Origin: Nitrosopumilus sp.
GTDB taxonomy: Archaea; Thermoproteota; Nitrososphaeria; Nitrososphaerales; Nitrosopumilaceae
DNA: 64,000 nucleotides
Reading direction: 5' to 3'
Assembly (NCBI GenBank): GCA_965206745.1
Contig: OZ242220.1
Location: 900,434-964,433 of the forward strand
Shown here: positions 3,880 to 47,852 of the stretch, piece after piece
Layout: every line of letters starts with the position of its first letter
Position numbering within the stretch: position 1 is the stretch's first letter
Position numbers and translations under genes: made by a program
The notes under the pieces: model-generated
What the model saw: only the letters and a program-made list of their open reading frames with translations
What the model was told of the DNA's origin: nothing
Database searches by the model: none

Positions 3880-4082
3880 AACCGTATCAAATTTTTTAAA
3901 ATTTTGTCAATGACTTGAATCTCTTCTTTCCGTTCTTTTATCGCAGACTGATTCCATTCTTTTGCAAACTCTGACTCTCTGTCCATCTTTTCTAAAACTT
4001 CAATGTACTTTACAAGGTGAATTTTGTAGTCGTGAAGCAGATCCAGATGCTTGTTGTGATTCTTCTCAGTCGGTGTGGCCAT
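3876..4082 (-). CDS. Hypothetical protein
   Basis: 68-aa helical ORF coupled to the upstream minus-strand ORF. Confidence 0.65.
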   Translation of the reverse strand: MATPTEKNHNKHLDLLHDYKIHLVKYIEVLEKMDRESEFAKEWNQSAIKERKEEIQVIDKILKNLIRF

Positions 4083-4299
4083 CCCATTCCTCCTCTGCCA
4101 TATCTGGGAACATGTCCCTTATGCGCTTTTTGTCTTTTTGCATTGCCTCTATCCTCTTCTCCAGGTGGCTTTTGACTGCCGGCTCTGCCTCCTGTTCTTT
4201 CTCACCCTCGATATCTGAGATGATTTTGGATAGCGATTTATAATATGAGATGTGGTTTTTTTTCGACTCCTCTGATGTGTCCTCTTTTTTTACATCCAT
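4066..4299 (-). CDS. Hypothetical charged coiled-coil protein
   Basis: 77-aa ATG ORF. Confidence 0.7.
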   Translation of the reverse strand: MDVKKEDTSEESKKNHISYYKSLSKIISDIEGEKEQEAEPAVKSHLEKRIEAMQKDKKRIRDMFPDMAEEEWDGHTD

Positions 4300-4368
4300 C
4301 GTATCTTATGATACTGTTGAAAATAAGTACTTGATCCTTTGGTATTTGTTTACATTAATATTGAAATT

Positions 4369-4656
4369 ATGTTGTCAAAACATGTGAAAATCCTTATCGA
4401 CGAGATGGATGATGGATGGGATGAGAAACTCAAAGAATTAGGCCATGATGCATATAGTGTCAAAAAATTACGTGTAGATGGCCATAAATTGGGGACTGAT
4501 TACTCTGTGATTAATTATGCTAAAGAAAATGACATGGTCCTAGTAACTCGTGATACTGAAAACGGTCAGGCATGTGAAGAAAATGGATTGCCATACATAT
4601 TGTTAGATAATAACGAGATTTTTAAAATCGTATTGGATAAACTAAAAGATTCCTAG
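4369..4656 (+). CDS. PIN-like domain protein (DUF5615/Mut7-C-like)
   Basis: KILIDEM...D..VINYAKENDMVLVTRD acidic PIN pattern; start moved to ATG 4369 (GTG 4384 also possible). Confidence 0.75.
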   Translation: MLSKHVKILIDEMDDGWDEKLKELGHDAYSVKKLRVDGHKLGTDYSVINYAKENDMVLVTRDTENGQACEENGLPYILLDNNEIFKIVLDKLKDS

Positions 4657-5219
4657 TTCACGTTATTTGTATCCATGTGAGATATTCTCAAATTTGCCAA
4701 GACCTCGTTTAGAAAATCCTCCTCCTTTTGATGTGTAATGTTGTTCATTATTGATTCCCAGCAATCATTTATCTTTCTAATTATCTGTGAATACATCTTG
4801 TCCTTTTTGAATGCAGGATAATATGACAGCAACTTCATTATCCCGTCAGTTGATTGGACTATGTGTATCTGGTGAATAATTGATCTTAGCCTTTGATGAT
4901 ATGACCACCCCTCCTCCCTTATGATGATTTGAAAACTGCCAATCTCCTCAAAAATCATCTCTATCTCCTTGTGCAGGTTCTTTAGCTGGCTGTTTACTGA
5001 CTCGGAGAGATTGATTAGCTCATACTCGATGTGAGACCTGCTGTGGACTTTTTTGTCGATTTCCCCTGCCTCGACTAGGGAACTGATCTCCCTGTACACT
5101 ATCTTCTCATTGCCTACTTTTTCTATCACCCTCTTGGCAAGCTCTGTCCCCCTGATCTTCCCATTCTCGTTTAGTATTCTGATAATTTCGGTCTTGATTA
5201 TCTCTGAATTTTTGTCCAT
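4653..5219 (-). CDS. Winged-helix domain protein
   Basis: IIRILNENGKIRGTELAKRV...YREISSLVEAGEIDKK wHTH pattern. Confidence 0.75.
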   Translation of the reverse strand: MDKNSEIIKTEIIRILNENGKIRGTELAKRVIEKVGNEKIVYREISSLVEAGEIDKKVHSRSHIEYELINLSESVNSQLKNLHKEIEMIFEEIGSFQIIIREEGWSYHQRLRSIIHQIHIVQSTDGIMKLLSYYPAFKKDKMYSQIIRKINDCWESIMNNITHQKEEDFLNEVLANLRISHMDTNNVN

Positions 5220-10098: not shown

Positions 10099-12273
10099 GT
10101 GGCTAGAAATGCAATGTTGGCACTCTTTACAGTGCTACTCATAGGAATGATGGTTGCCCCTGCGTATGCCGAGTTGTCGCCACGGGAACAACTCAAAATC
10201 GGCATCCCGATAAACCAAATTCTATGCAATGAGGAAAAGACCCTCATACAGTCACCTACAGGCAAGCCTGCCTGCGTCTTTGATGCCACTTTGGAAAGAC
10301 TTGTTCTACGGGGATGGATCATTGTGGAATTGGTTACACCGATTGTTGATTTTCAAGGGATAATAGATGCCACAGAACCAGCACCTGAACCAACACCAGC
10401 ACCTGAACCAACACCAGCACCTGAACCAACACCAGCACCTGAACCAACACCAGCACCTGAACCAACACCAGCACCTGAACCAACACCAGCACCTGAACCA
10501 ACACCAGCACCTGAACCAACACCAGCACCTGAACCAACACCAGCACCTGAACCAACACCAGCACCTGAACCAACACCAGCACCTGAACCAACACCGGCAC
10601 CTGAACCAACACCGGCACCTGAACCAACACCGGCACCTGAACCAACACCGGCACCTGAACCAGCACCTGAACCAGCACCTGAACCAACACCCGCACCCGA
10701 GCCTGAAATAATTTATTCTGATGACGGATATACTGCAAATCTATACCATGAAAACGGAATTCTCAAATCAGAAAAACAGTATGAGAACGGACAACTAGAA
10801 ACAGAATTATTATACCATGAAAACGGAGATCTCAAATCAGAAAAACACTATGAGGACGGACAGCTAGAATCAGAAATACAGTATGATGAAGACATGAATC
10901 GCAAATCACAAAAATATTATGAGGACGGACAACTAGATGAAGGAACACACTTTGAATACCATGAAAATGGAAATAAACAATCAGAAGTGCAACTTGGTAA
11001 AAATGGAAATTTGAAATTAGAATTAAAATATTTTAAAAATGGAAATCAGCAATTAGTATACAAATATGATGAAAATGGTGTGCTGATAGAAATGTCGCAA
11101 TTTTACAAAAACGGAAATTCTAAATTAACAGAATATTATAACGACGGACAGCTAGAAGTAGAAATACGATACAATGAAAATGGATATATGAACTCTGAAT
11201 TTGATTATTATGAGGACGGACAGCTAGAAAATGAATCATACTATGAATACTATGAAAACGGAAATTTCAAATTAGGAAAAGACTATGAAGATGGGCAACT
11301 TGCAGGTGAAACACATTACTATGAAAACACCAATCTCAAATCAGATAAACAGTATCAAGATGGGCAACCTGATTCAGATATAGAATACTATGAAAACGGA
11401 AATTTCAAATCAGAAAAATACTATGAGAATGGACAACTAGTAGGAGAACGTCACCGTTACAAAAACGGAAATATGGAATTTGAATCCAAATATTATGAGA
11501 ACGGACAAACAAAAGTTGAATCTCTATACCGTGAAAACGGAAATGGTATATCAGACAAATATTATGATGAGAACGGACAGATAATAGACGAAACATATTA
11601 TGAGTATTATGAAAACGGGAATAAACAATCAAAACTTCAATATTATGGTAACGGAGAACTAAAAGCCGAATATCAGCATTATGAAAACGGAAATAAACGA
11701 TCAGAATTACACCACTATGAAAATAACATGATAAAACAAGAATTGCAATTTTATGAAAATAAAAACATGCAATCAAAAAAATCTTACTATGAGAACGGAC
11801 AACTGAAATCAGAATATCAATACCATGAAAACGGAAATCTCAAATTACACAAAATTTACTCAGAGCACGGAAAACCTGGCTATACGGAATACAATAAAAA
11901 CGGAGATCTCAAATTAAAAAAACATTATTCTTATGTGGACGGACAATACATAGTATACAGAGAAGTATCCTATGAATACCACGAAAACGGAGATCTCAAA
12001 TCAAAAAAATATTATCTCACTGGAAAACTAATATCTGAGTCATACTATGAATACCATGAAAACAGAAATCTCAAATCCCAAAAACACTATGAGAACGGCC
12101 AACTAAAATCAGAATATCAATACCATGAAAACGGAAATCCCAAATCAGAAAAATATTATTGGAACGGACAACTATCCGAAGAAGTATACTATGAATACCA
12201 CGAAAATGGAGATACCAAATCAGTAAAACGCTATAAGAACGGACAAGAAGTGCCATACATTACATTCGGTTAA
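10099..12273 (+). CDS. Secreted MORN_2/YwqK-like repeat protein with Cys-motif N-domain and Pro-rich stalk
   Basis: Signal peptide (…MVAPAYA|EL), SPREQ..C..PACV..RGW module, (PAPEPT)n linker, then ~520 aa of Y(H/Y)ENGxxKSExxYxxGQL repeats. Confidence 0.85.
10378..10707 (+). repeat. 18-bp coding minisatellite (PAPEPT)
   Basis: Unit ccagcacctgaaccaaca x12, then ccg-variant units, then a degenerate PAPE tail. Confidence 0.97.
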
Positions 12274-24379: not shown

Positions 24380-25717
24380 TTGACTCCTCGAAATTCATTG
24401 AACAAGGTTATTCTGTCAATGCTGGCATTGACTTTGGTTATTACATTGGGTCTGGGATCATCTTATGCTCAAGATGATTATGTATACCATGATGAAAATG
24501 GGAATAAACAACCAAAAGTTTTCTATTATAATAATGGACAGCAGCAATCGGAATTCCACTATGATGAGGGCGGATTGCTGGAACAAGAAACACGATTTTC
24601 TGAAGATGGAAGTATACGCTCACATACCTTTTATGACCATAACGGTTATCCGAATGAACAAATATCCTATGAATATCATGAAAACGGAAATCTCAAATCA
24701 GAAAAACACCATGAAAATGATCATCTGGAAGAAGAAATACTCTACCATGAAAACGGTCAACGTAAATCAGAAAAATACTATGAAAGCGGACAACTAGATC
24801 AAGAAATATACTATGAATACTATGAAAACGATAAAATCAAATCAGAAAAATATTATAAAAACGGAGAACTAAAATCAGAATCAAGTTATCATGAAAACGG
24901 GCATCTGGAGCTATATTTGCAATATGATGAAAACAAAAATGTGCAATCAGAAGGCACCTATGATGAAAACGGACAACTAGAAGATGAGACACGCTTTGAA
25001 TATTACAAAAATGGAAGTCAGAAATCACTAAAAGAATATGACGATGGGCAATTAGAGTTGGAAACACAATTTTACAAAAATGGACATTTCAAATCTACAA
25101 AAAAATACACTAACGGACAACTAGAAACAGAATGGCAGCGACATGAAAACGGAGATTTAGAATCAAGATCAGACTATCATGAAAATGGAAATAAACAATC
25201 ATTCACAATATTCAAAAACGGACAACCGAAATCTGAGATTCGTTACGATGAAAATGGGAATTACAACTTGTACCGATTGCATCGTGCTGACGGTTCATTA
25301 AAATCTGAAAGCCATTATCATGAAAATGGAAAATTAAAATTAGAAATAATCTATTATGAGAACGAACTACCACAATCTGAATTTAGTTATTTCTACGATG
25401 GACTAATAAAATCAAAAGTCACTTATTTCGAAAACGGACAACTAAATACACTGTTGCAATATAATGATATGGGGTTTATACTGGGGTTAAAACCACTAGC
25501 GTTTAAACAACTGGAAATTAGTTATTATGAGAATGGACCACTACGATCCGTAACCCATTGGCATGAATATAACATGTTAAAATCAAGAACGTACTATGAT
25601 GAAACTGGCGTATTGAGCGCAGTAATATTATATAATCAAATGGGACACGTACAATCCAAATTCTATAATGATGAAAATGAGGAGTCAAAAAAGAATATGA
25701 CTGGAACGGACAGCTAA
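24380..25717 (+). CDS. Secreted MORN_2/YwqK-like repeat protein
   Basis: Signal peptide (…GLGSSYA|QDD), then YHENGxxKSExxY repeats; probable 2-nt insertion at 25679-25680. Confidence 0.85.
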   Translation: MTPRNSLNKVILSMLALTLVITLGLGSSYAQDDYVYHDENGNKQPKVFYYNNGQQQSEFHYDEGGLLEQETRFSEDGSIRSHTFYDHNGYPNEQISYEYHENGNLKSEKHHENDHLEEEILYHENGQRKSEKYYESGQLDQEIYYEYYENDKIKSEKYYKNGELKSESSYHENGHLELYLQYDENKNVQSEGTYDENGQLEDETRFEYYKNGSQKSLKEYDDGQLELETQFYKNGHFKSTKKYTNGQLETEWQRHENGDLESRSDYHENGNKQSFTIFKNGQPKSEIRYDENGNYNLYRLHRADGSLKSESHYHENGKLKLEIIYYENELPQSEFSYFYDGLIKSKVTYFENGQLNTLLQYNDMGFILGLKPLAFKQLEISYYENGPLRSVTHWHEYNMLKSRTYYDETGVLSAVILYNQMGHVQSKFYNDENEESKKNMTGTDS

Positions 25718-28784: not shown

Positions 28785-29189
28785 GTGGATGAAAAATCCG
28801 TAAAACTGTTTTCGGAGAAAAACCTTGTCTTTATTGCGACTCTGATGAAGGACGGCTCACCCCAGGTCTCACCTGTCTGGGCAAACTATGCTGATGGGTT
28901 TATTTTGGTAAACACTGCAGAAGGCAGGATAAAGCACAAAAATATCTTGCGTGACCCACGTGTCGCAGTATCTGCCGTCTCAAAAGACAATCCCCTTGAT
29001 ATGACAACGATTCGCGGGACAGTCCAGGAACTGATTCCAGACTATGATTACAAGCATGCCGATGAGTTGACTTTGCAGTACATGGGACGGGAGCGCTATC
29101 CGTTCAGACGTGACGGTGAAAAAAGAGTCATACTAAAAATAAGACCGGACAAGGTTTTTGTCCTGCCTGAGTTGAAGATGAATCAGTAG
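28785..29189 (+). CDS. PPOX-class F420-dependent oxidoreductase
   Basis: IATLMKDGSPQVSPVW...GRIKHKNILRDPRVAVS. Confidence 0.9.
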   Translation: MDEKSVKLFSEKNLVFIATLMKDGSPQVSPVWANYADGFILVNTAEGRIKHKNILRDPRVAVSAVSKDNPLDMTTIRGTVQELIPDYDYKHADELTLQYMGRERYPFRRDGEKRVILKIRPDKVFVLPELKMNQ

Positions 29190-29201
29190 CAGTTTGGAAT
29201 C

Positions 29202-29223
29202 TTTCTAAATTCGAATTTAGAAA
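29202..29223. repeat. 22-bp perfect palindrome, copy 1
   Basis: TTTCTAAATTCGAATTTAGAAA. Confidence 0.95.
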
Positions 29224-29272
29224 TATAATACATTCAGTAGGGGCAGATTAGAAAAAAGATAGCATAGACAGC

Positions 29273-29623
29273 TTAACGTCGACGTTTAGCTGCCTTTCTC
29301 TTTGGAGCGGCTCTGCGTTTTGGTGCTGCCTTTCTCTTTGGAGATGCTTTTTTAGATGCAGTTCTTCTCTTTGGAGCGGCTCTGCGTTTTGGTGCTGCCT
29401 TTCTCTTTGGAGCTGCTTTTCGTTTGACTGCAGTTCTTCGTTTTGGTGCTGCTTTTCGTTTGGAACCAGATTTACCTGCGTTCTTTCTACGAGTTGCTGC
29501 TGCCTTTCTTTTACGAGCTGCTGCGGCCTTTAATGCCTCTGCTGCCTTTTTAGCTGCATTCCTCTTTCGAGTTCTTGCGGCCTTTTTAGCTGCTTCGGCT
29601 CTTTTGGCTTGAGATATTGCCAT
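29273..29623 (-). CDS. Lys/Arg/Ala-rich histone H1-like basic protein
   Basis: Repeated KRKAAPKRR units; almost no acidic residues. Confidence 0.8.
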   Translation of the reverse strand: MAISQAKRAEAAKKAARTRKRNAAKKAAEALKAAAARKRKAAATRRKNAGKSGSKRKAAPKRRTAVKRKAAPKRKAAPKRRAAPKRRTASKKASPKRKAAPKRRAAPKRKAAKRRR

Positions 29624-29726
29624 AACTTTTTTGCGAAGATCATAGATGTTATATTGTAAAAGTCATACAATACTACGCTGTATATAGAAAAATTTGACAC
29701 CTTTTTTGATTTTTACAGATCACCGA

Positions 29727-30212
29727 TCAGCAATTTATGATACAAACGGAAGCTGTATCCACAGTAGACTGATTCTTTTGCGGACGAACGAGTATCTTGT
29801 ATTGGGATTCCTCATCAAATGGAATGTCAAACTGCGTTGTTCTCTGAATCTGTTTGTCTGGTTCAAGTGCTTCTAAAAGCAGGTCTTTTGCCGAAAATTC
29901 CCCAAAGAATGCCTTGTATTTCTTTTCTTTCTCATCGACAATGTAAAACTGCCCTCCTGACATGATAGTTTCCTCATCACTGATGTTTTTTGCGGCAATA
30001 CCGATCATCACAAATGTGTTTTCAGGCTGTTTATCCTTGTTTCCGTTATGGGTCCCTTCAAATGTAATGACATACTCTACAGGTCCTACGATGACTGATT
30101 CTCCCTCATTTGCTATGATATAGTTTGTCTGATACTGGGTATACATGAATAATGCAAGCACCATTGATGCTATGATTACACCTAATACTATTACAGTTCC
30201 AATTCCGCCCAT
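29727..30212 (-). CDS. Membrane-anchored DUF4352-like protein
   Basis: N-terminal TM; FVMIGIAAKN...FYIVDEKEKKY...FDIP Ig-like pattern. Confidence 0.75.
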   Translation of the reverse strand: MGGIGTVIVLGVIIASMVLALFMYTQYQTNYIIANEGESVIVGPVEYVITFEGTHNGNKDKQPENTFVMIGIAAKNISDEETIMSGGQFYIVDEKEKKYKAFFGEFSAKDLLLEALEPDKQIQRTTQFDIPFDEESQYKILVRPQKNQSTVDTASVCIINC

Positions 30213-30527
30213 AATTTTTCATGATCATTTTAGTATATAGTTGAAACGCAGAAAAATTGGGATGATTATGACCAAAATCCCCCTCCCATATTTGATCTAA
30301 ATCTTGCAGTAGATGATTTTCAGGCAAATCTGCATATTCATCGGCAGGAACCAAACCATGATTCCCTTGGTGACTCAAACTCTAACTGCTCAAATCACTC
30401 CGTTTTTTCTAGTTTTTTGCACAACATTTGGGGGGTTGAGCTTTTAGGCACGAGTATGATAGTTTGGGGATGTTTTGCCCGGAGAGCGGGGTGAAATTAG
30501 GGTTGCCTGTTGCATCTAGGCACAAGT

Positions 30528-30606
30528 GTTAAACCCCCCGTCAAAACGCCTGATCCTGAAAATTTCACATTATGCCTAAACATGCTAATTTTCAGGGGGG
30601 TTTAAC
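30528..30606. repeat. 12-bp perfect inverted repeat with G6/C6 tract
   Basis: gttaaacccccc 30528-30539 / ggggggtttaac 30595-30606. Confidence 0.9.
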
Positions 30607-31069
30607 GCCTAGGCTTGATTTTGCAAAATTGCTCATTTTAGAACTTTGTCTGAATCTGGCATGATCTCACATGATGTTTGTAATGATGGGCGGGTATTTC
30701 TCCTCAAAGGGGAGAGAGGGGGGATGCTTGGGGGTTTTTTTGGAATCTGTTCTTGTAACTCTTGCTGTTTTAATTCATCCTGAGCTGGACAATTACTGCC
30801 AGGAAACCATGACTTGAAGAGATTATTCATACATTTGAGTTTCCTGGTTCACATGTGCCGAGAATCCCATATGTTCTTTTGATGATGCTCGTTTTACAAA
30901 CATCATTTCATGGTTACATTCATTGTCAAAAAGTCCTCTTTTTTGAATCTCGGACTTTTCATGAAATCTGCTTTTGATTTACAGGTTGTAAATTTTGTTG
31001 CCATCATGCCTGTATGATGGTACATTTTTGATGCAGGATTCTCTCCAGAACGGCAAATCCTCTATTTTT

Positions 31070-31519
31070 TTAAAATGTCTTCAGTAAAAATCTGGAAACT
31101 TTGTCATATTTTTCAGAAACGCTGTCTATTGCTTCAAACATTGTCTGCTGATTGATATTTTCCTTATCGTCCATCACCACATAGATGCCTACCTTCTGCT
31201 TTCCATCCTCTGTGATGATCTTGTTGATTACTTGTATAGAATAGCAAAAATCCCCCACTTTTTTCTCAAATCTTTCTTTCTCTTGGGTATTAAACCCCAA
31301 ATACCTTGCAATTTGATTATTTTTCATTATGACCTTGGCCCCTATGACTATAATTCCTAGCTGTTTTTTTGGCTCAAAGATGTCTATGGGAATTCCGTAC
31401 GGTCCTGCATGTTTTAGGAGAACTTGAAAATTATTTTCGGGATTTTTTACCTCTCCAAACGAAAGCCCTTCATGAATTACCCATCTCTCTACACTGTCTC
31501 TCATCTGGGATGTACTCAT
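31070..31519 (-). CDS. DUF2299-like protein
   Basis: VERWVIHEGLSF...IDIFEPKK..IIVIG pattern. Confidence 0.7.
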   Translation of the reverse strand: MSTSQMRDSVERWVIHEGLSFGEVKNPENNFQVLLKHAGPYGIPIDIFEPKKQLGIIVIGAKVIMKNNQIARYLGFNTQEKERFEKKVGDFCYSIQVINKIITEDGKQKVGIYVVMDDKENINQQTMFEAIDSVSEKYDKVSRFLLKTF

Positions 31520-31584
31520 AAAAGATCTCTCAAATTGGTTCTATATGACTCTAAATCTGAAAGATTGCCATGCTGGATTTAGAA

Positions 31585-31610
31585 TATTTCTAAATTCGAA
31601 TTTAGAAATA
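31585..31610. repeat. Palindrome copy 2 (extends to 26 bp)
   Basis: TATTTCTAAATTCGAATTTAGAAATA. Confidence 0.95.
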
Positions 31611-31646
31611 ACAATTTTCTTTATCCGAGAAGCAAGAAACTGGTTG

Positions 31647-31874
31647 CTATATGTTCACATTAAAGCCCGAATCCGAGCCTGGAGCCGCCCCTAGTATCAA
31701 AATATTGAAAATTATCCCAATTATCATAAAAATAATCCCAACATACATGCAATTTTTTGCTTTATTGGGATCGCTCTGCCGTAGGATGAAAAATGCGATT
31801 ATCCCGCCAATCATTCCAAAGAGAATTGGCAACAAAAACCATGCATTACTTTTGGGTTTTACTGGATAGTCCAT
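31647..31874 (-). CDS. Small two-TM membrane protein
   Basis: SNAWFLLPILFGMIGGIIAFF...KAKNCMYVGII. Confidence 0.75.
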   Translation of the reverse strand: MDYPVKPKSNAWFLLPILFGMIGGIIAFFILRQSDPNKAKNCMYVGIIFMIIGIIFNILILGAAPGSDSGFNVNI

Positions 31875-31885
31875 GCCACTTGTCT

Positions 31886-32134
31886 CTACTTTGCAGTTAT
31901 TACTTTTCTCTGTAACTGTGTAATCTCAATTTCCACTGTTTCTAGAGGATCATCTACCTGATTGCGTCTAATTGAGAACATTTTTGGCTTTTCAAAGTCA
32001 TCTGTGCAATCCGGGCATGCATACACTAGTACTCTGTGTTCGTTGGGCGCCTTGGGGTTTGACAGTCTTGGATAATATACCAGTCTTGCTCCGCAATCAA
32101 CACAATATCTGTTGGCCCTTCTGGTTCTAACCAA
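31886..32134 (-). CDS. Zinc-ribbon protein
   Basis: CVDC...CPDC; TTG start. Confidence 0.7.
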   Translation of the reverse strand: MVRTRRANRYCVDCGARLVYYPRLSNPKAPNEHRVLVYACPDCTDDFEKPKMFSIRRNQVDDPLETVEIEITQLQRKVITAK

Positions 32135-32225
32135 TGTAAGCCTCCTGCATTATTCTAGATATGCGATCACCTATTAGATCTATATTGTCTAATAGAGTAA
32201 ACCAATTACTAACAACCGATCAATA

Positions 32226-32247
32226 TTTCTAAATTCGAATTTAGAAA
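32226..32247. repeat. Palindrome copy 3
   Basis: TTTCTAAATTCGAATTTAGAAA. Confidence 0.95.
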
Positions 32248-32296
32248 CATATCTGATCATCATCTGTGATTCCCTTACAACTGTGAAAATAAAATA

Positions 32297-32318
32297 TTTC
32301 AAAACTCGAGTTTAGAAA
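32297..32318. repeat. Palindrome copy 4 (variant)
   Basis: TTTCAAAACTCGAGTTTAGAAA: three substitutions, two of them a compensatory pair. Confidence 0.85.
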
Positions 32319-32324
32319 GAAGAG

Positions 32325-32398
32325 CGCCTCCCACCAGACTTGAACTGGTGACCAACCGGTTAACAGCCGGTTGCTCTACCACGCTGAGCTAGGGAGGC
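32325..32398 (-). tRNA. tRNA-Asn (GTT), intronless
   Basis: GCCTCCC/GGGAGGC acceptor stem, TAGCTCAG D-arm, ACCGG-CTGTTAA-CCGGT anticodon arm, GTTCAAG T-loop. Confidence 0.97.
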
Positions 32399-45437: not shown

Positions 45438-45651
45438 ATTTCAAAAATTGTTTTTTTGTATTTAGCGTGTGCTGATGATTCATTAGTAAAAATAGGGATT
45501 TTATGACTAAATGGATAACTGATCGGTATCTTTTGAAATGTGTTGTAGGTGATCGATCAACTTTGATTAAAAGAATTCGGTTTGTGGTGTAATGTTTTTG
45601 TTAATTCTGCTTTAGCAAGATTCTATTAAACTATGAATTAGATCCCTTGTC

Positions 45652-45993
45652 ATGGTGAAATCCAAAATAGAATTACCAATTTCCCAAATGCCCACAGATG
45701 CTGAATTAAAGAAACTAAAGGATTACTTTAAAGACATGCCTGTGACTGAAATCCTTAGTGGACTAAAATTTGCCAAGAATAGGTGGTCTGCAAAAGATGC
45801 CGGCACTCTAAAAGTAGGAAGGAAAAGTATTATCCAAAAGGAAGTCCACTCAGTCACTACAGAACAAGCCCAATGGAGGCTGAAAAATTGGAAGATGATG
45901 ATTGCAAATTACCGTAGGCGTGGATACAGTTATCCTACTATTTCTCGAATAAAGAAAATTTTGGTTCAAAAAAGCAAAAAAAGATCAAAGTAA
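45652..45993 (+). CDS. Basic hypothetical protein
   Basis: 113-aa ATG ORF, Lys-rich. Confidence 0.75.
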   Translation: MVKSKIELPISQMPTDAELKKLKDYFKDMPVTEILSGLKFAKNRWSAKDAGTLKVGRKSIIQKEVHSVTTEQAQWRLKNWKMMIANYRRRGYSYPTISRIKKILVQKSKKRSK

Positions 45994-47201: not shown

Positions 47202-47852
47202 CTAAATGAAGATGTCTGCTTTTCTCTCAACCTTTTGTTGTTTAAGCGAGTCTGGCACGTCGGGAATGGAGGATTTTGTCTGTCCAGCAATCACACTGTG
47301 AGCTTCTTCTAGTATTGCCAGCGTGTCTGCATTTGCTTCAGGTGCAATGCTCACACTATCCCCGATGCCTACTGATGATCCAGACATTACGTCTCCTAGT
47401 ATCTCTGAGAGGTCCTGCATTGAAGCAGTTGCCTCTGGCATAAGTCCAGTCAGTGATGGGCTTAACCCTTTGATGATTGCCATGCATGGACTTAGCGTTA
47501 CCACTACATCTCCCAACTCGGAGACTGTGTCTAGTCTAAGTTTGACTTGTTCCATGGACAGCTTTGCCCCGCCAACCATGTTTTTCATCTTTCTAACCTG
47601 AGTCAACTCTCCGGCGTATGCGTGAGCATAACTAGGCTTGTTATTTCTTTGGGCATTGACTATTTTTTCAAATATAACATCGTGTTTTTTCTGTAATTTT
47701 TCATTAATCTGCTCTAATTTTGAGATTTGAAACTGTAATTTTTTTTGTGCAAAATCAATCTTGTTTTTTAATGGCTCTTCTGGCTTTACCCTGCCAATTA
47801 CTCTCTGGGATATGCTCTCCCCTGCTGTTTTATCCCAAGAATTACTGATCAT
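47202..47852 (-). CDS. cdvB: ESCRT-III (Snf7) family cell division protein, CdvB type
   Basis: AYAGEL.QVRKM...LSMEQV.LRLDTVSELGDVVVTL pattern; which paralogue is not resolved. Confidence 0.85.
   Translation of the reverse strand: MISNSWDKTAGESISQRVIGRVKPEEPLKNKIDFAQKKLQFQISKLEQINEKLQKKHDVIFEKIVNAQRNNKPSYAHAYAGELTQVRKMKNMVGGAKLSMEQVKLRLDTVSELGDVVVTLSPCMAIIKGLSPSLTGLMPEATASMQDLSEILGDVMSGSSVGIGDSVSIAPEANADTLAILEEAHSVIAGQTKSSIPDVPDSLKQQKVERKADIFI

Follow-up and report, generated by a model that had tools for sequence, protein, structure and literature searches.

Palindrome copies beside tRNA-Asn

The window analysed here, a stretch of 64,000 nucleotides from Nitrosopumilus sp. (contig OZ242220.1, positions 900,434 to 964,433), holds a short perfect palindrome, TTTCTAAATTCGAATTTAGAAA, in several copies among small genes next to tRNA-Asn; in all probability it is a protein recognition site that ammonia-oxidising archaea share. 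An earlier note, made from the letters of the window, had reported exact copies of this 22-mer at 29202, 31587 and 32226, the second extending to 26 bp (31585-31610), together with a variant, TTTCAAAACTCGAGTTTAGAAA, at 32297, and a rescan returned all of them at these positions. The variant has three mismatches to the exact 22-mer, and 100 dinucleotide-preserving shuffles gave 0 matches to the palindrome. The four copies fall inside 3.1 kb of the window. That the window contains no other copy stands for sites with up to five mismatches, but a degenerate copy with six lies at 45597-45618.

29202..29223, palindrome copy 1, exact (28-bp form at 29199-29226), between the convergent PNPOx-like and H1-like genes
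31587..31608, palindrome copy 2, exact, within a perfect 26-bp palindrome at 31585-31610
32226..32247, palindrome copy 3, exact, 91 nt ahead of the 82-aa zinc-ribbon gene (Zn82)
32297..32318, palindrome copy 4, variant with a CTCGAG centre and T5>A, 5 nt past the tRNA-Asn 3' end
45597..45618, degenerate fifth copy, 6 mismatches, 33 nt ahead of the c15 gene

Copy 1 begins 12 nt past the stop of the plus-strand PNPOx-like gene (28785-29189) and lies 49 nt past the minus-strand H1-like gene, while copy 2 lies 38 nt past the stop of a 75-aa membrane-protein gene and 67 nt ahead of the 149-aa DUF2299 gene. Every copy in the window does follow a minus-strand 3' end, as had been remarked, but copy 1 separates convergent genes, and copies 2 and 3 also stand upstream of genes. 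The tRNA beside the copies was confirmed as tRNA-Asn (GTT) on the minus strand, and it is the sole match in an Rfam scan of the window. The ribosomal-protein operon (L6, S8, S14, L5 onward) runs on the minus strand from 32773, and the window is archaeal. The genes around the copies are as follows, with Zn82 and TM75 forming the module between copies 2 and 3.

29273..29623, minus strand, H1-like basic protein, 116 aa, Lys/Ala/Arg-rich, few relatives
29727..30212, minus strand, TM161, DUF4352 membrane-anchored protein, in the module between copies 1 and 2
31070..31519, minus strand, p149, DUF2299 protein (149 aa), in the module between copies 1 and 2
31647..31874, minus strand, TM75, 75-aa membrane protein, weak DUF5518 match
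31886..32134, minus strand, Zn82, 82-aa zinc-ribbon protein, 80-96% identity across genera, without a Pfam family
32324..32398, minus strand, tRNA-Asn (GTT), last gene of the ribosomal-protein operon block
45652..45993, plus strand, c15, 113-aa protein found throughout ammonia-oxidising archaea
47202..47852, minus strand, Snf7/ESCRT-III (CdvB-type) gene, with no palindrome adjoining it in the window

The conserved unit

Sequence conservation reaches beyond the 22-mer that had been taken as the unit. Among all copies compared, 97% have T at position -1 and 84% have A at position -2, and a purine stands at position 0. Because these flanking bases are conserved symmetrically, the functional unit, judged from the alignment, is a 28-bp palindrome, AT-R-TTTCTAAATTCGAATTTAGAAA-Y-AT, of which the 22-mer is the core. 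This unit consists of two 13-bp arms around a central CG. Variant copies keep the central TCGA and the outer TTTC/GAAA nearly unchanged and differ at positions 5, 9, 14 and 18; across at least 400 sites the TCGA centre is nearly invariant.

Two of the changes in copy 4 had been read as compensatory, preserving the symmetry of a stem. Among 89 distinct variant sites, however, symmetric changes number 36 pairs against 30.4 expected (P = 0.11), which leaves that reading without statistical support. Lineage-specific half-site changes, such as TTGC...GCAA, do recur in different copies of the same genome, as expected if a single protein reads all copies.

Distribution among ammonia-oxidising archaea

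A scan for the exact 22-mer over one genome per species (596 Gb) matched at least 120 stretches, and every one of the matches listed comes from ammonia-oxidising Nitrososphaerota. The genera among them are Nitrosopumilus, Nitrosarchaeum, Nitrosopelagicus, Cenarchaeum, Nitrosotenuis, Nitrosotalea, Nitrososphaera, Nitrosopolaris and other Nitrososphaeraceae; the genome of the window itself is absent from the matches listed. Such a scan had been proposed in the earlier note, and it bears out conservation across the phylum and clustering of the copies. Copies are always intergenic, number two to five per genome and occupy one chromosomal neighbourhood, the reported copies falling in one 8-kb block or two adjacent blocks in 20 of 20 contigs longer than 300 kb. 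They stand between convergent, tandem and divergent genes, and so independently of transcription-unit geometry. Since the sequence is identical across orders, its distribution implies function rather than recent spread.

Individual copies can be followed between genomes. The orthologue of copy 1, 3' of the PNPOx gene, is present in at least 37 Nitrosopumilaceae loci and that of copy 2 in about 41, and dozens of Nitrosopumilaceae genomes have a palindrome 4-8 nt past tRNA-Asn. The most widely kept pairing of gene and site is Zn82 with a palindrome upstream (57 loci), and the palindrome remains beside Zn82 in three loci where the tRNA is elsewhere (L067, L101 and L117).

One Nitrosopumilus chromosome (OZ240211.1, 4999-7547; locus L038) carries two exact 28-bp palindromes separated by 295 bp of non-coding sequence. 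Their gene context is unusual, with an ArsR-like helix-turn-helix (HTH) gene of 139 aa, a membrane-protein gene of 108 aa and a transposase-like open reading frame (ORF) of 383 aa beside them.

Gene order and rearrangements at the copies

The palindromes (pal) punctuate a different but overlapping gene order in each of three groups:

Nitrosopumilaceae: purC> HTH> PNPOx> pal (H1<) TM161< p149< pal TM75< Zn82< pal (pal) tRNA-Asn< (p95<) L6< S8<
Nitrosotalea and Nitrosotenuis: bioB> bioF> trx-like> pal Snf7> c15< pal c32< Zn82< pal pal tRNA-Asn< L6<
Nitrososphaeraceae: serRec< pal bioB> bioF> pal c15> Snf7<

The presence, order and orientation of modules vary among genomes, with breakpoints at palindromes. 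Comparing gene content between copies, another step that had been recommended, revealed modules that are missing, moved or inverted in some loci but the standard order in dozens. Two loci (L008 and L037) are without the module between copies 1 and 2, and in L009 the unit palindrome-TM75-Zn82-palindrome sits in a foreign genomic context, with homology spanning only 4034-4727. The same unit is inverted between two exact copies when L076 is compared with L093.

The clearest rearrangement involves bioB-bioF, which lies between two copies and is inverted in L007/L133, L121, L127, L132 and L137 relative to other loci. When L036 is compared with L007, the distance from palindrome to bioB start is 52 versus 51 nt and that from bioF stop to palindrome is 5 versus 5 nt. 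Because these distances from palindrome to segment end are unchanged, the crossover lay within the palindromes.

Contig ends near palindromes are enriched two- to threefold, a weak signal. Contigs joining a palindrome to foreign flanks were considered as recombinant joints and rejected, as they proved to be the orthologous site in a second archaeon that shares the culture. Two culture runs of the window's organism (X1 and X2) hold this second ammonia-oxidising archaeon at a relative depth of about 8% and about 50%, respectively, and, in the comparison over positions 31480-31720, its copy-1 site matches contig CALCPD010000037.1 (L097).

Insertions were also seen at the tRNA. Nitrosarchaeum sp. 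LAS73 (L067:1200-6500) has a 5.3-kb insertion between the palindrome upstream of Zn82 and tRNA-Asn; it contains a 361-aa ORF that is Cas1-like by eye only (casposon-like), beside a 171-aa ORF. L117 and L101 carry insertions of 2.8 and 1.7 kb at the same spot. As all three loci carry insertions there, the tRNA-Asn 3' flank looks like an insertion hotspot.

A serine recombinase linked to the palindrome in Nitrososphaeraceae

Eleven Nitrososphaeraceae loci found through the palindrome encode, beside a copy, a protein of about 197 aa that matches Resolvase (1.6e-33) and HTH_7 and is a small serine recombinase. A search with this protein gave 159 relatives, the best 80 of which were kept as loci; all 80 are from Nitrososphaeraceae, and the matches listed are close Nitrososphaera-type relatives only. 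In most of these best 80 of 159 loci a palindrome lies 0.3-0.7 kb upstream of the recombinase gene, usually with a second some 2.2 kb beyond it. The gene shows vertical conservation, at 70-100% identity and in stable synteny.

Small circular elements carry the same site

IMG/VR contains 14 contigs with the exact 22-mer and 50 that match a slightly degenerate form of it. Of the latter, 48 are 4.1-4.75 kb long (about 4.2 kb), and 47 have terminal overlaps and are hence circular. They form one family of 70-88% nucleotide identity with about ten small ORFan genes, among which there were no Pfam or PHROG matches and no recognisable replication initiator (Rep), capsid or integrase. The genes encode two membrane proteins, two zinc-ribbon proteins, a very basic 70-aa protein, a ribbon-helix-helix-like 72-aa protein and Gly/Ser/Thr-rich proteins. 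A longer viral match of 28 kb (L234) is a T7-like phage with a degenerate motif inside an ORF, and was set aside as a chance match.

Each of the 48 elements has one palindrome copy. Its usual position is between divergent membrane-protein genes, each palindrome end being 30-32 nt from a start codon and TATA-like flanks abutting the site; in one element (L221) it stands instead at a convergent gene junction. The shared palindrome suggests that Nitrosopumilaceae are the hosts. A protein-based metagenome scan returned 232 relatives of the elements, TARA scaffolds included, of which the best 80 were kept (L250-L329, beside L200-L233, L235-L237 and L239-L249 from IMG/VR). The circular elements were also considered as the source of the chromosomal modules, an idea rejected for want of any protein homology.

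Among the 50 metagenome contigs of at least 4 kb, 19 carry the first palindrome and about 29 have ATTCTCTATTCT(W)AGAATRGAGAAT instead, in the same control region between c5 and c4 and directly against the c4 start codon; both occur in a few elements. This second palindrome has half-sites that match those of the first at 8 of 11 positions and are spaced 3 bp further apart. The genome collection holds it once (L330:5185-5207), 70-90 nt past the 23S rRNA 3' end in a Nitrosopelagicus single-cell genome.

A probable recognition site for a dimeric protein, with recombination as the first-ranked candidate process

The palindrome is very probably the recognition site of a conserved dimeric DNA-binding protein that acts on DNA and is common to the chromosome and the small circles. 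This reading, which the earlier note had listed among its options, is supported because the site is conserved base for base across the phylum and because it is the sequence, not a structure or its pairing, that is conserved; half-site changes shared within genomes point the same way.

The process that such a protein would carry out is a more tentative matter. We rank site-specific recombination or resolution first, as a possibility rather than an expectation, because a serine recombinase is linked to the site, the architecture is 13-2-13 with an invariant centre, and an inversion was precise. The tRNA gene beside the site, the single copy in integrase-less circles and the reported absence of XerA also argue for this ranking. 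Two protein subunits would bind the 13-bp arms and exchange strands at the invariant TCGA centre, with its central CG. For Nitrososphaeraceae, the conserved small serine recombinase encoded beside a copy is the proposed enzyme. Its normal role might be the resolution of chromosome multimers, equivalent in function to dif/res in a phylum for which XerA is reported absent, and the rare inversions, deletions and transpositions of modules between neighbouring copies would then be by-products. The 4.2-kb circles may carry one copy so as to use the host enzyme, much as ColE1 uses cer with XerCD.

A good deal weighs against this proposal. The large ORFs of the 64-kb window include no recombinase gene, nor was a tyrosine integrase found in it, as the earlier note had it, and no Nitrosopumilaceae, Nitrosotalea or Nitrosotenuis locus holds a homologue of the recombinase. 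As the recombinase is confined to Nitrososphaeraceae loci, the phylum-wide site needs a binder not found here, and for Nitrosopumilales the enzyme's identity is something we can only infer. Near the recombinase gene there are no accessory half-sites, and its recognition helix shows no clean covariation with site variants. The bioB-bioF inversion looks, from the relationships of the loci, like a single evolutionary event in one group of close relatives. Gene order and orientation are otherwise the same in dozens of genomes despite three identical copies in 3 kb, so recombination between neighbouring copies must be rare or suppressed. No recombinant joints appeared in contigs of a 457x culture run or of related runs, and the sole run with raw reads yielded no coverage; the Nitrososphaera metagenome runs likewise gave no joints, at a depth of only 2-9x. 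The best 80 of the 232 metagenome relatives of the elements are all short free contigs, none of them integrated, and the genome-contig collection contains no integrated element. About 60% of the element family is without the first palindrome, a different, related palindrome replacing it in most of these relatives, and most elements that have it hold it centred between divergent start codons, a placement that also fits an operator. The suggestion that the copies delimit cassettes therefore survives in part: breakpoints do fall at palindromes, a serine recombinase is linked in one family and circles share the site, but arrangements are stable within clades, the recombinase is missing from the window and from Nitrosopumilaceae loci, and no integrated or excised form was seen.

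A narrower version, that the palindrome is the missing resolution or segregation site of the phylum, we consider doubtful. A domesticated serine recombinase would serve it, replaced in lineages that have none by some other enzyme, for instance topoisomerase IB, and the widespread 4.2-kb circles of marine Nitrosopumilaceae, with neither Rep nor integrase, would persist as parasites of this host system by means of their one copy. The topoisomerase IB of the ammonia-oxidising phylum is of the eukaryote type. Two points from the literature favour the recombination reading as a whole. Thaumarchaea are described as lacking xerA (PMC2958812). The hallmark of archaeal dif is TAA-N6-8-TTA (PMC11840125), and the palindrome contains TAA-N8-TTA, within the search range of 6-8 used for archaeal dif (PMC11840125).

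Alternative explanations

Next in probability, and itself no more than a fair contender, is an operator or roadblock for a host transcription factor: a tightly bound dimer would repress over the TFB-recognition element and TATA box (BRE/TATA) or block read-through past genes, and the circles would borrow the site to couple two divergent operons to a host regulator. The elements speak for it most directly, with the site centred between divergent start codons at 30-32 nt from each, TATA-like flanks, and, in related elements, the other palindrome taking its place in that control region, next to the c4 start codon. On chromosomes, Nitrososphaeraceae have a copy 25-39 nt ahead of c15 and one about 52 nt ahead of bioB, and an ArsR-type HTH gene stands beside copies in Nitrosopumilaceae. 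Candidate binders encoded nearby are c15, the ArsR-type HTH172 and Zn82. The RNA data are thin: a contig of low depth ends at 29224, 1 nt past copy 1, as a roadblock would have it. Another contig runs through copy 3 into copy 4, so these two copies are not a tight transcription block. Copy 1, kept in at least 37 genomes, has no promoter on either side, and copy 4 faces a tRNA 3' end. All 22-28 positions are conserved, the centre included, far more than operators usually show; families differ in which gene is paired with the site, and single copies are lost while the gene stays. The linkage to a serine recombinase would also have to be coincidence.

Among these candidate binders is c15, whose assignment to the palindrome is speculative. 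From Nitrosopumilus to Nitrososphaera, the protein ends in an invariant C-terminal motif, W-R-L-x-N-W-K-x-M-I-x-x-Y-R-x-x-GYSYPTISRIKK. It has 2674 homologues; c15 always adjoins the Snf7/CdvB-type gene and is in the palindrome neighbourhood in every clade. A good palindrome copy precedes the c15 orthologue in Nitrososphaeraceae, and in Nitrosotalea and Nitrosotenuis an exact palindrome lies between the Snf7 gene and a thioredoxin-like gene. In the window the c15/Snf7/trx/bioFBA block is 13-21 kb away, past the ribosomal operon, with only the degenerate site before c15. No family could be assigned to c15, which has no Pfam or PDB match. It was tried as an HTH protein and rejected: the hhalign comparison with the recombinase HTH was insignificant, and the AlphaFold model (pLDDT 52.8) was unusable.

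A centromere-like or architectural site, as in a parS cluster or at a boundary or loading site for SMC (structural maintenance of chromosomes) complexes, is a rather unlikely alternative. Copies would nucleate a partition or condensin complex, and circles would hitch-hike on it. A short perfect palindrome found throughout a phylum in two to five clustered intergenic copies, whatever the gene geometry, follows the pattern known from bacterial parS; each circular element has one copy, and archaeal dif regions coincide with SMC boundaries (PMC11840125). Against this, neither the window nor the loci showed a ParA/ParB, SegAB or SMC gene, linkage to the recombinase and the precise inversion go unexplained, and most members of the element family do without the site.

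Still less probable is a replicator, in which the palindrome, akin to an origin recognition box (ORB), would bind the host initiator, mark the chromosomal origin and let Rep-less circles replicate. It would account for circular elements with no recognisable Rep, and several chromosomal copies do flank an 850-bp non-coding stretch with G-string repeats. The 64 kb contain no orc1/cdc6 gene, though, archaeal ORBs are asymmetric and bound by monomers, and the element family manages without the site. Skew in the window tracks gene strand and does not switch at the palindrome locus.

An RNA-level hairpin, that is, a transcription terminator or a stabiliser of 3' ends, had been among the suggestions for this locus and is very improbable. 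Every copy in the window follows a gene 3' end, the low-depth RNA contig that stops at 29224 would fit, and the related palindrome past a Nitrosopelagicus 23S rRNA would too. The hairpins of the copies, however, are worth only -5.3 to -7.8 kcal/mol, or -2.7 for copy 4, which has lost a base pair, and their AU-rich stems are followed by no U-tract. Some copies stand between divergent start codons, a place in which transcripts do not end, an RNA contig crosses copy 3, and it is sequence rather than pairing that is conserved, with symmetric changes not in excess. Because its gene context varies and its hairpin is weak and without a U-tract, the site is neither an intrinsic terminator nor a repeat of the kinds considered next.

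The least probable explanation of all is a mobile repeat spreading by its own transposase or integrase, whether a repetitive extragenic palindrome (REP, as had been suggested, or a bacterial interspersed mosaic element), a miniature inverted-repeat transposable element (MITE) or an attC-like integron site: a repeated intergenic palindrome near a tRNA gene, and a transposase gene together with two copies in L038, recall such repeats, but the copies are two to five per genome, clustered at a single locus rather than dispersed, syntenic across genera and identical across orders, no REP-associated transposase (RAYT) or integron integrase was seen, and an integron cassette array was rejected because a tyrosine integrase is absent, the sites do not vary but are identical, and the modules are conserved core genes.

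Comparison with known systems

The palindrome resembles res/hix, dif/cer, parS and shared operators without showing all the defining features of any of them. With the sites of small serine recombinases (Hin hix, Gin gix, and res site I of Tn3/gamma-delta) it has in common a palindrome of 26-28 bp with arms of 12-13 bp and a 2-bp centre, an adjoining Resolvase plus HTH_7 gene in Nitrososphaeraceae, and a 2.2-kb segment between sites that occurs in both orientations; like res, it can occupy a divergent promoter region. Unlike them, it is perfectly palindromic with a symmetric CG centre, and is therefore without polarity; no accessory subsites or enhancer were found at it. It is also chromosomal throughout the phylum, including lineages without a linked recombinase, and inversion is rare and does not act as a switch.

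With Xer/dif systems the site shares a length of 28 bp, readable as 11+6+11, the TAA...TTA hallmark, very wide conservation and a copy between convergent genes. Small circular replicons that carry one copy and no recombinase recall ColE1 cer and integrative mobile elements exploiting Xer (IMEX), and gene modules bracketed by copies recall the pdif modules of Acinetobacter. Whereas dif is single, however, the chromosomes here have several copies (3-4 good ones in 3.1 kb in the window, 2-5 in relatives); Thaumarchaea are reported to have no XerA, the TAA-TTA spacing is 8 rather than 6, and no integrated elements were seen.

The likeness to parS clusters lies in a short perfect palindrome, wide conservation (across phyla for parS) and a few clustered copies without regard to orientation. 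No ParB-like partner was identified, and neither recombinase linkage nor inversion is a feature of parS. Operators shared by hosts and viruses, such as LexA boxes in phages and plasmids or the aCcr1 box of Sulfolobales and their viruses, are similar in that a host palindrome is reused in the control region of an element, in most elements between or over core promoters. They differ in that the host copies studied here also occur without a promoter, cluster at one locus rather than across a regulon, and are conserved at every base. A literature search did not find the palindrome sequence, and it returned no description of a thaumarchaeal dif site, a thaumarchaeal serine-recombinase system or such a palindrome.

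Ammonia-oxidising archaea rank among Earth's most abundant microbes, and to our knowledge almost nothing is known of the cis-acting elements of their chromosomes. A 28-bp sequence that is identical from marine Nitrosopumilus to soil Nitrososphaera is among their most constrained non-coding elements. If it is a site of recombination or resolution, it would permit a direct test of chromosome-dimer resolution in a phylum without XerA, and would represent a chromosomal, vertically inherited use of a serine recombinase. The palindrome can serve as bait for its binding protein, and as a marker that ties 4.2-kb circles from ocean metagenomes to thaumarchaeal hosts.

Other features of the window

The H1-like protein is internally repetitive, and in its few relatives the gene always comes directly after palindrome copy 1. 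RNA contigs over this gene, from three RNA runs, reach a word depth of 79-174, against 2-7 for neighbouring genes.

Between TM161 and p149, positions 30213-31069 form the 850-bp stretch without a convincing ORF. It holds the G-string repeats, three copies of GGGGGGTT(T/G)A(A/G)C beside TAGGC in both orientations, has no RNA coverage, and is the part of the region richest in single-nucleotide polymorphisms and indels relative to a related strain. In relatives the stretch is 0.6-2.9 kb long.

The other large ORFs of the window are metabolic, transport or ribosomal genes or have no assigned function. Two large MORN-repeat proteins, of 724 and 445 aa, are encoded at 10099-12273 and 24380-25717, in AT-skewed stretches of low GC content.

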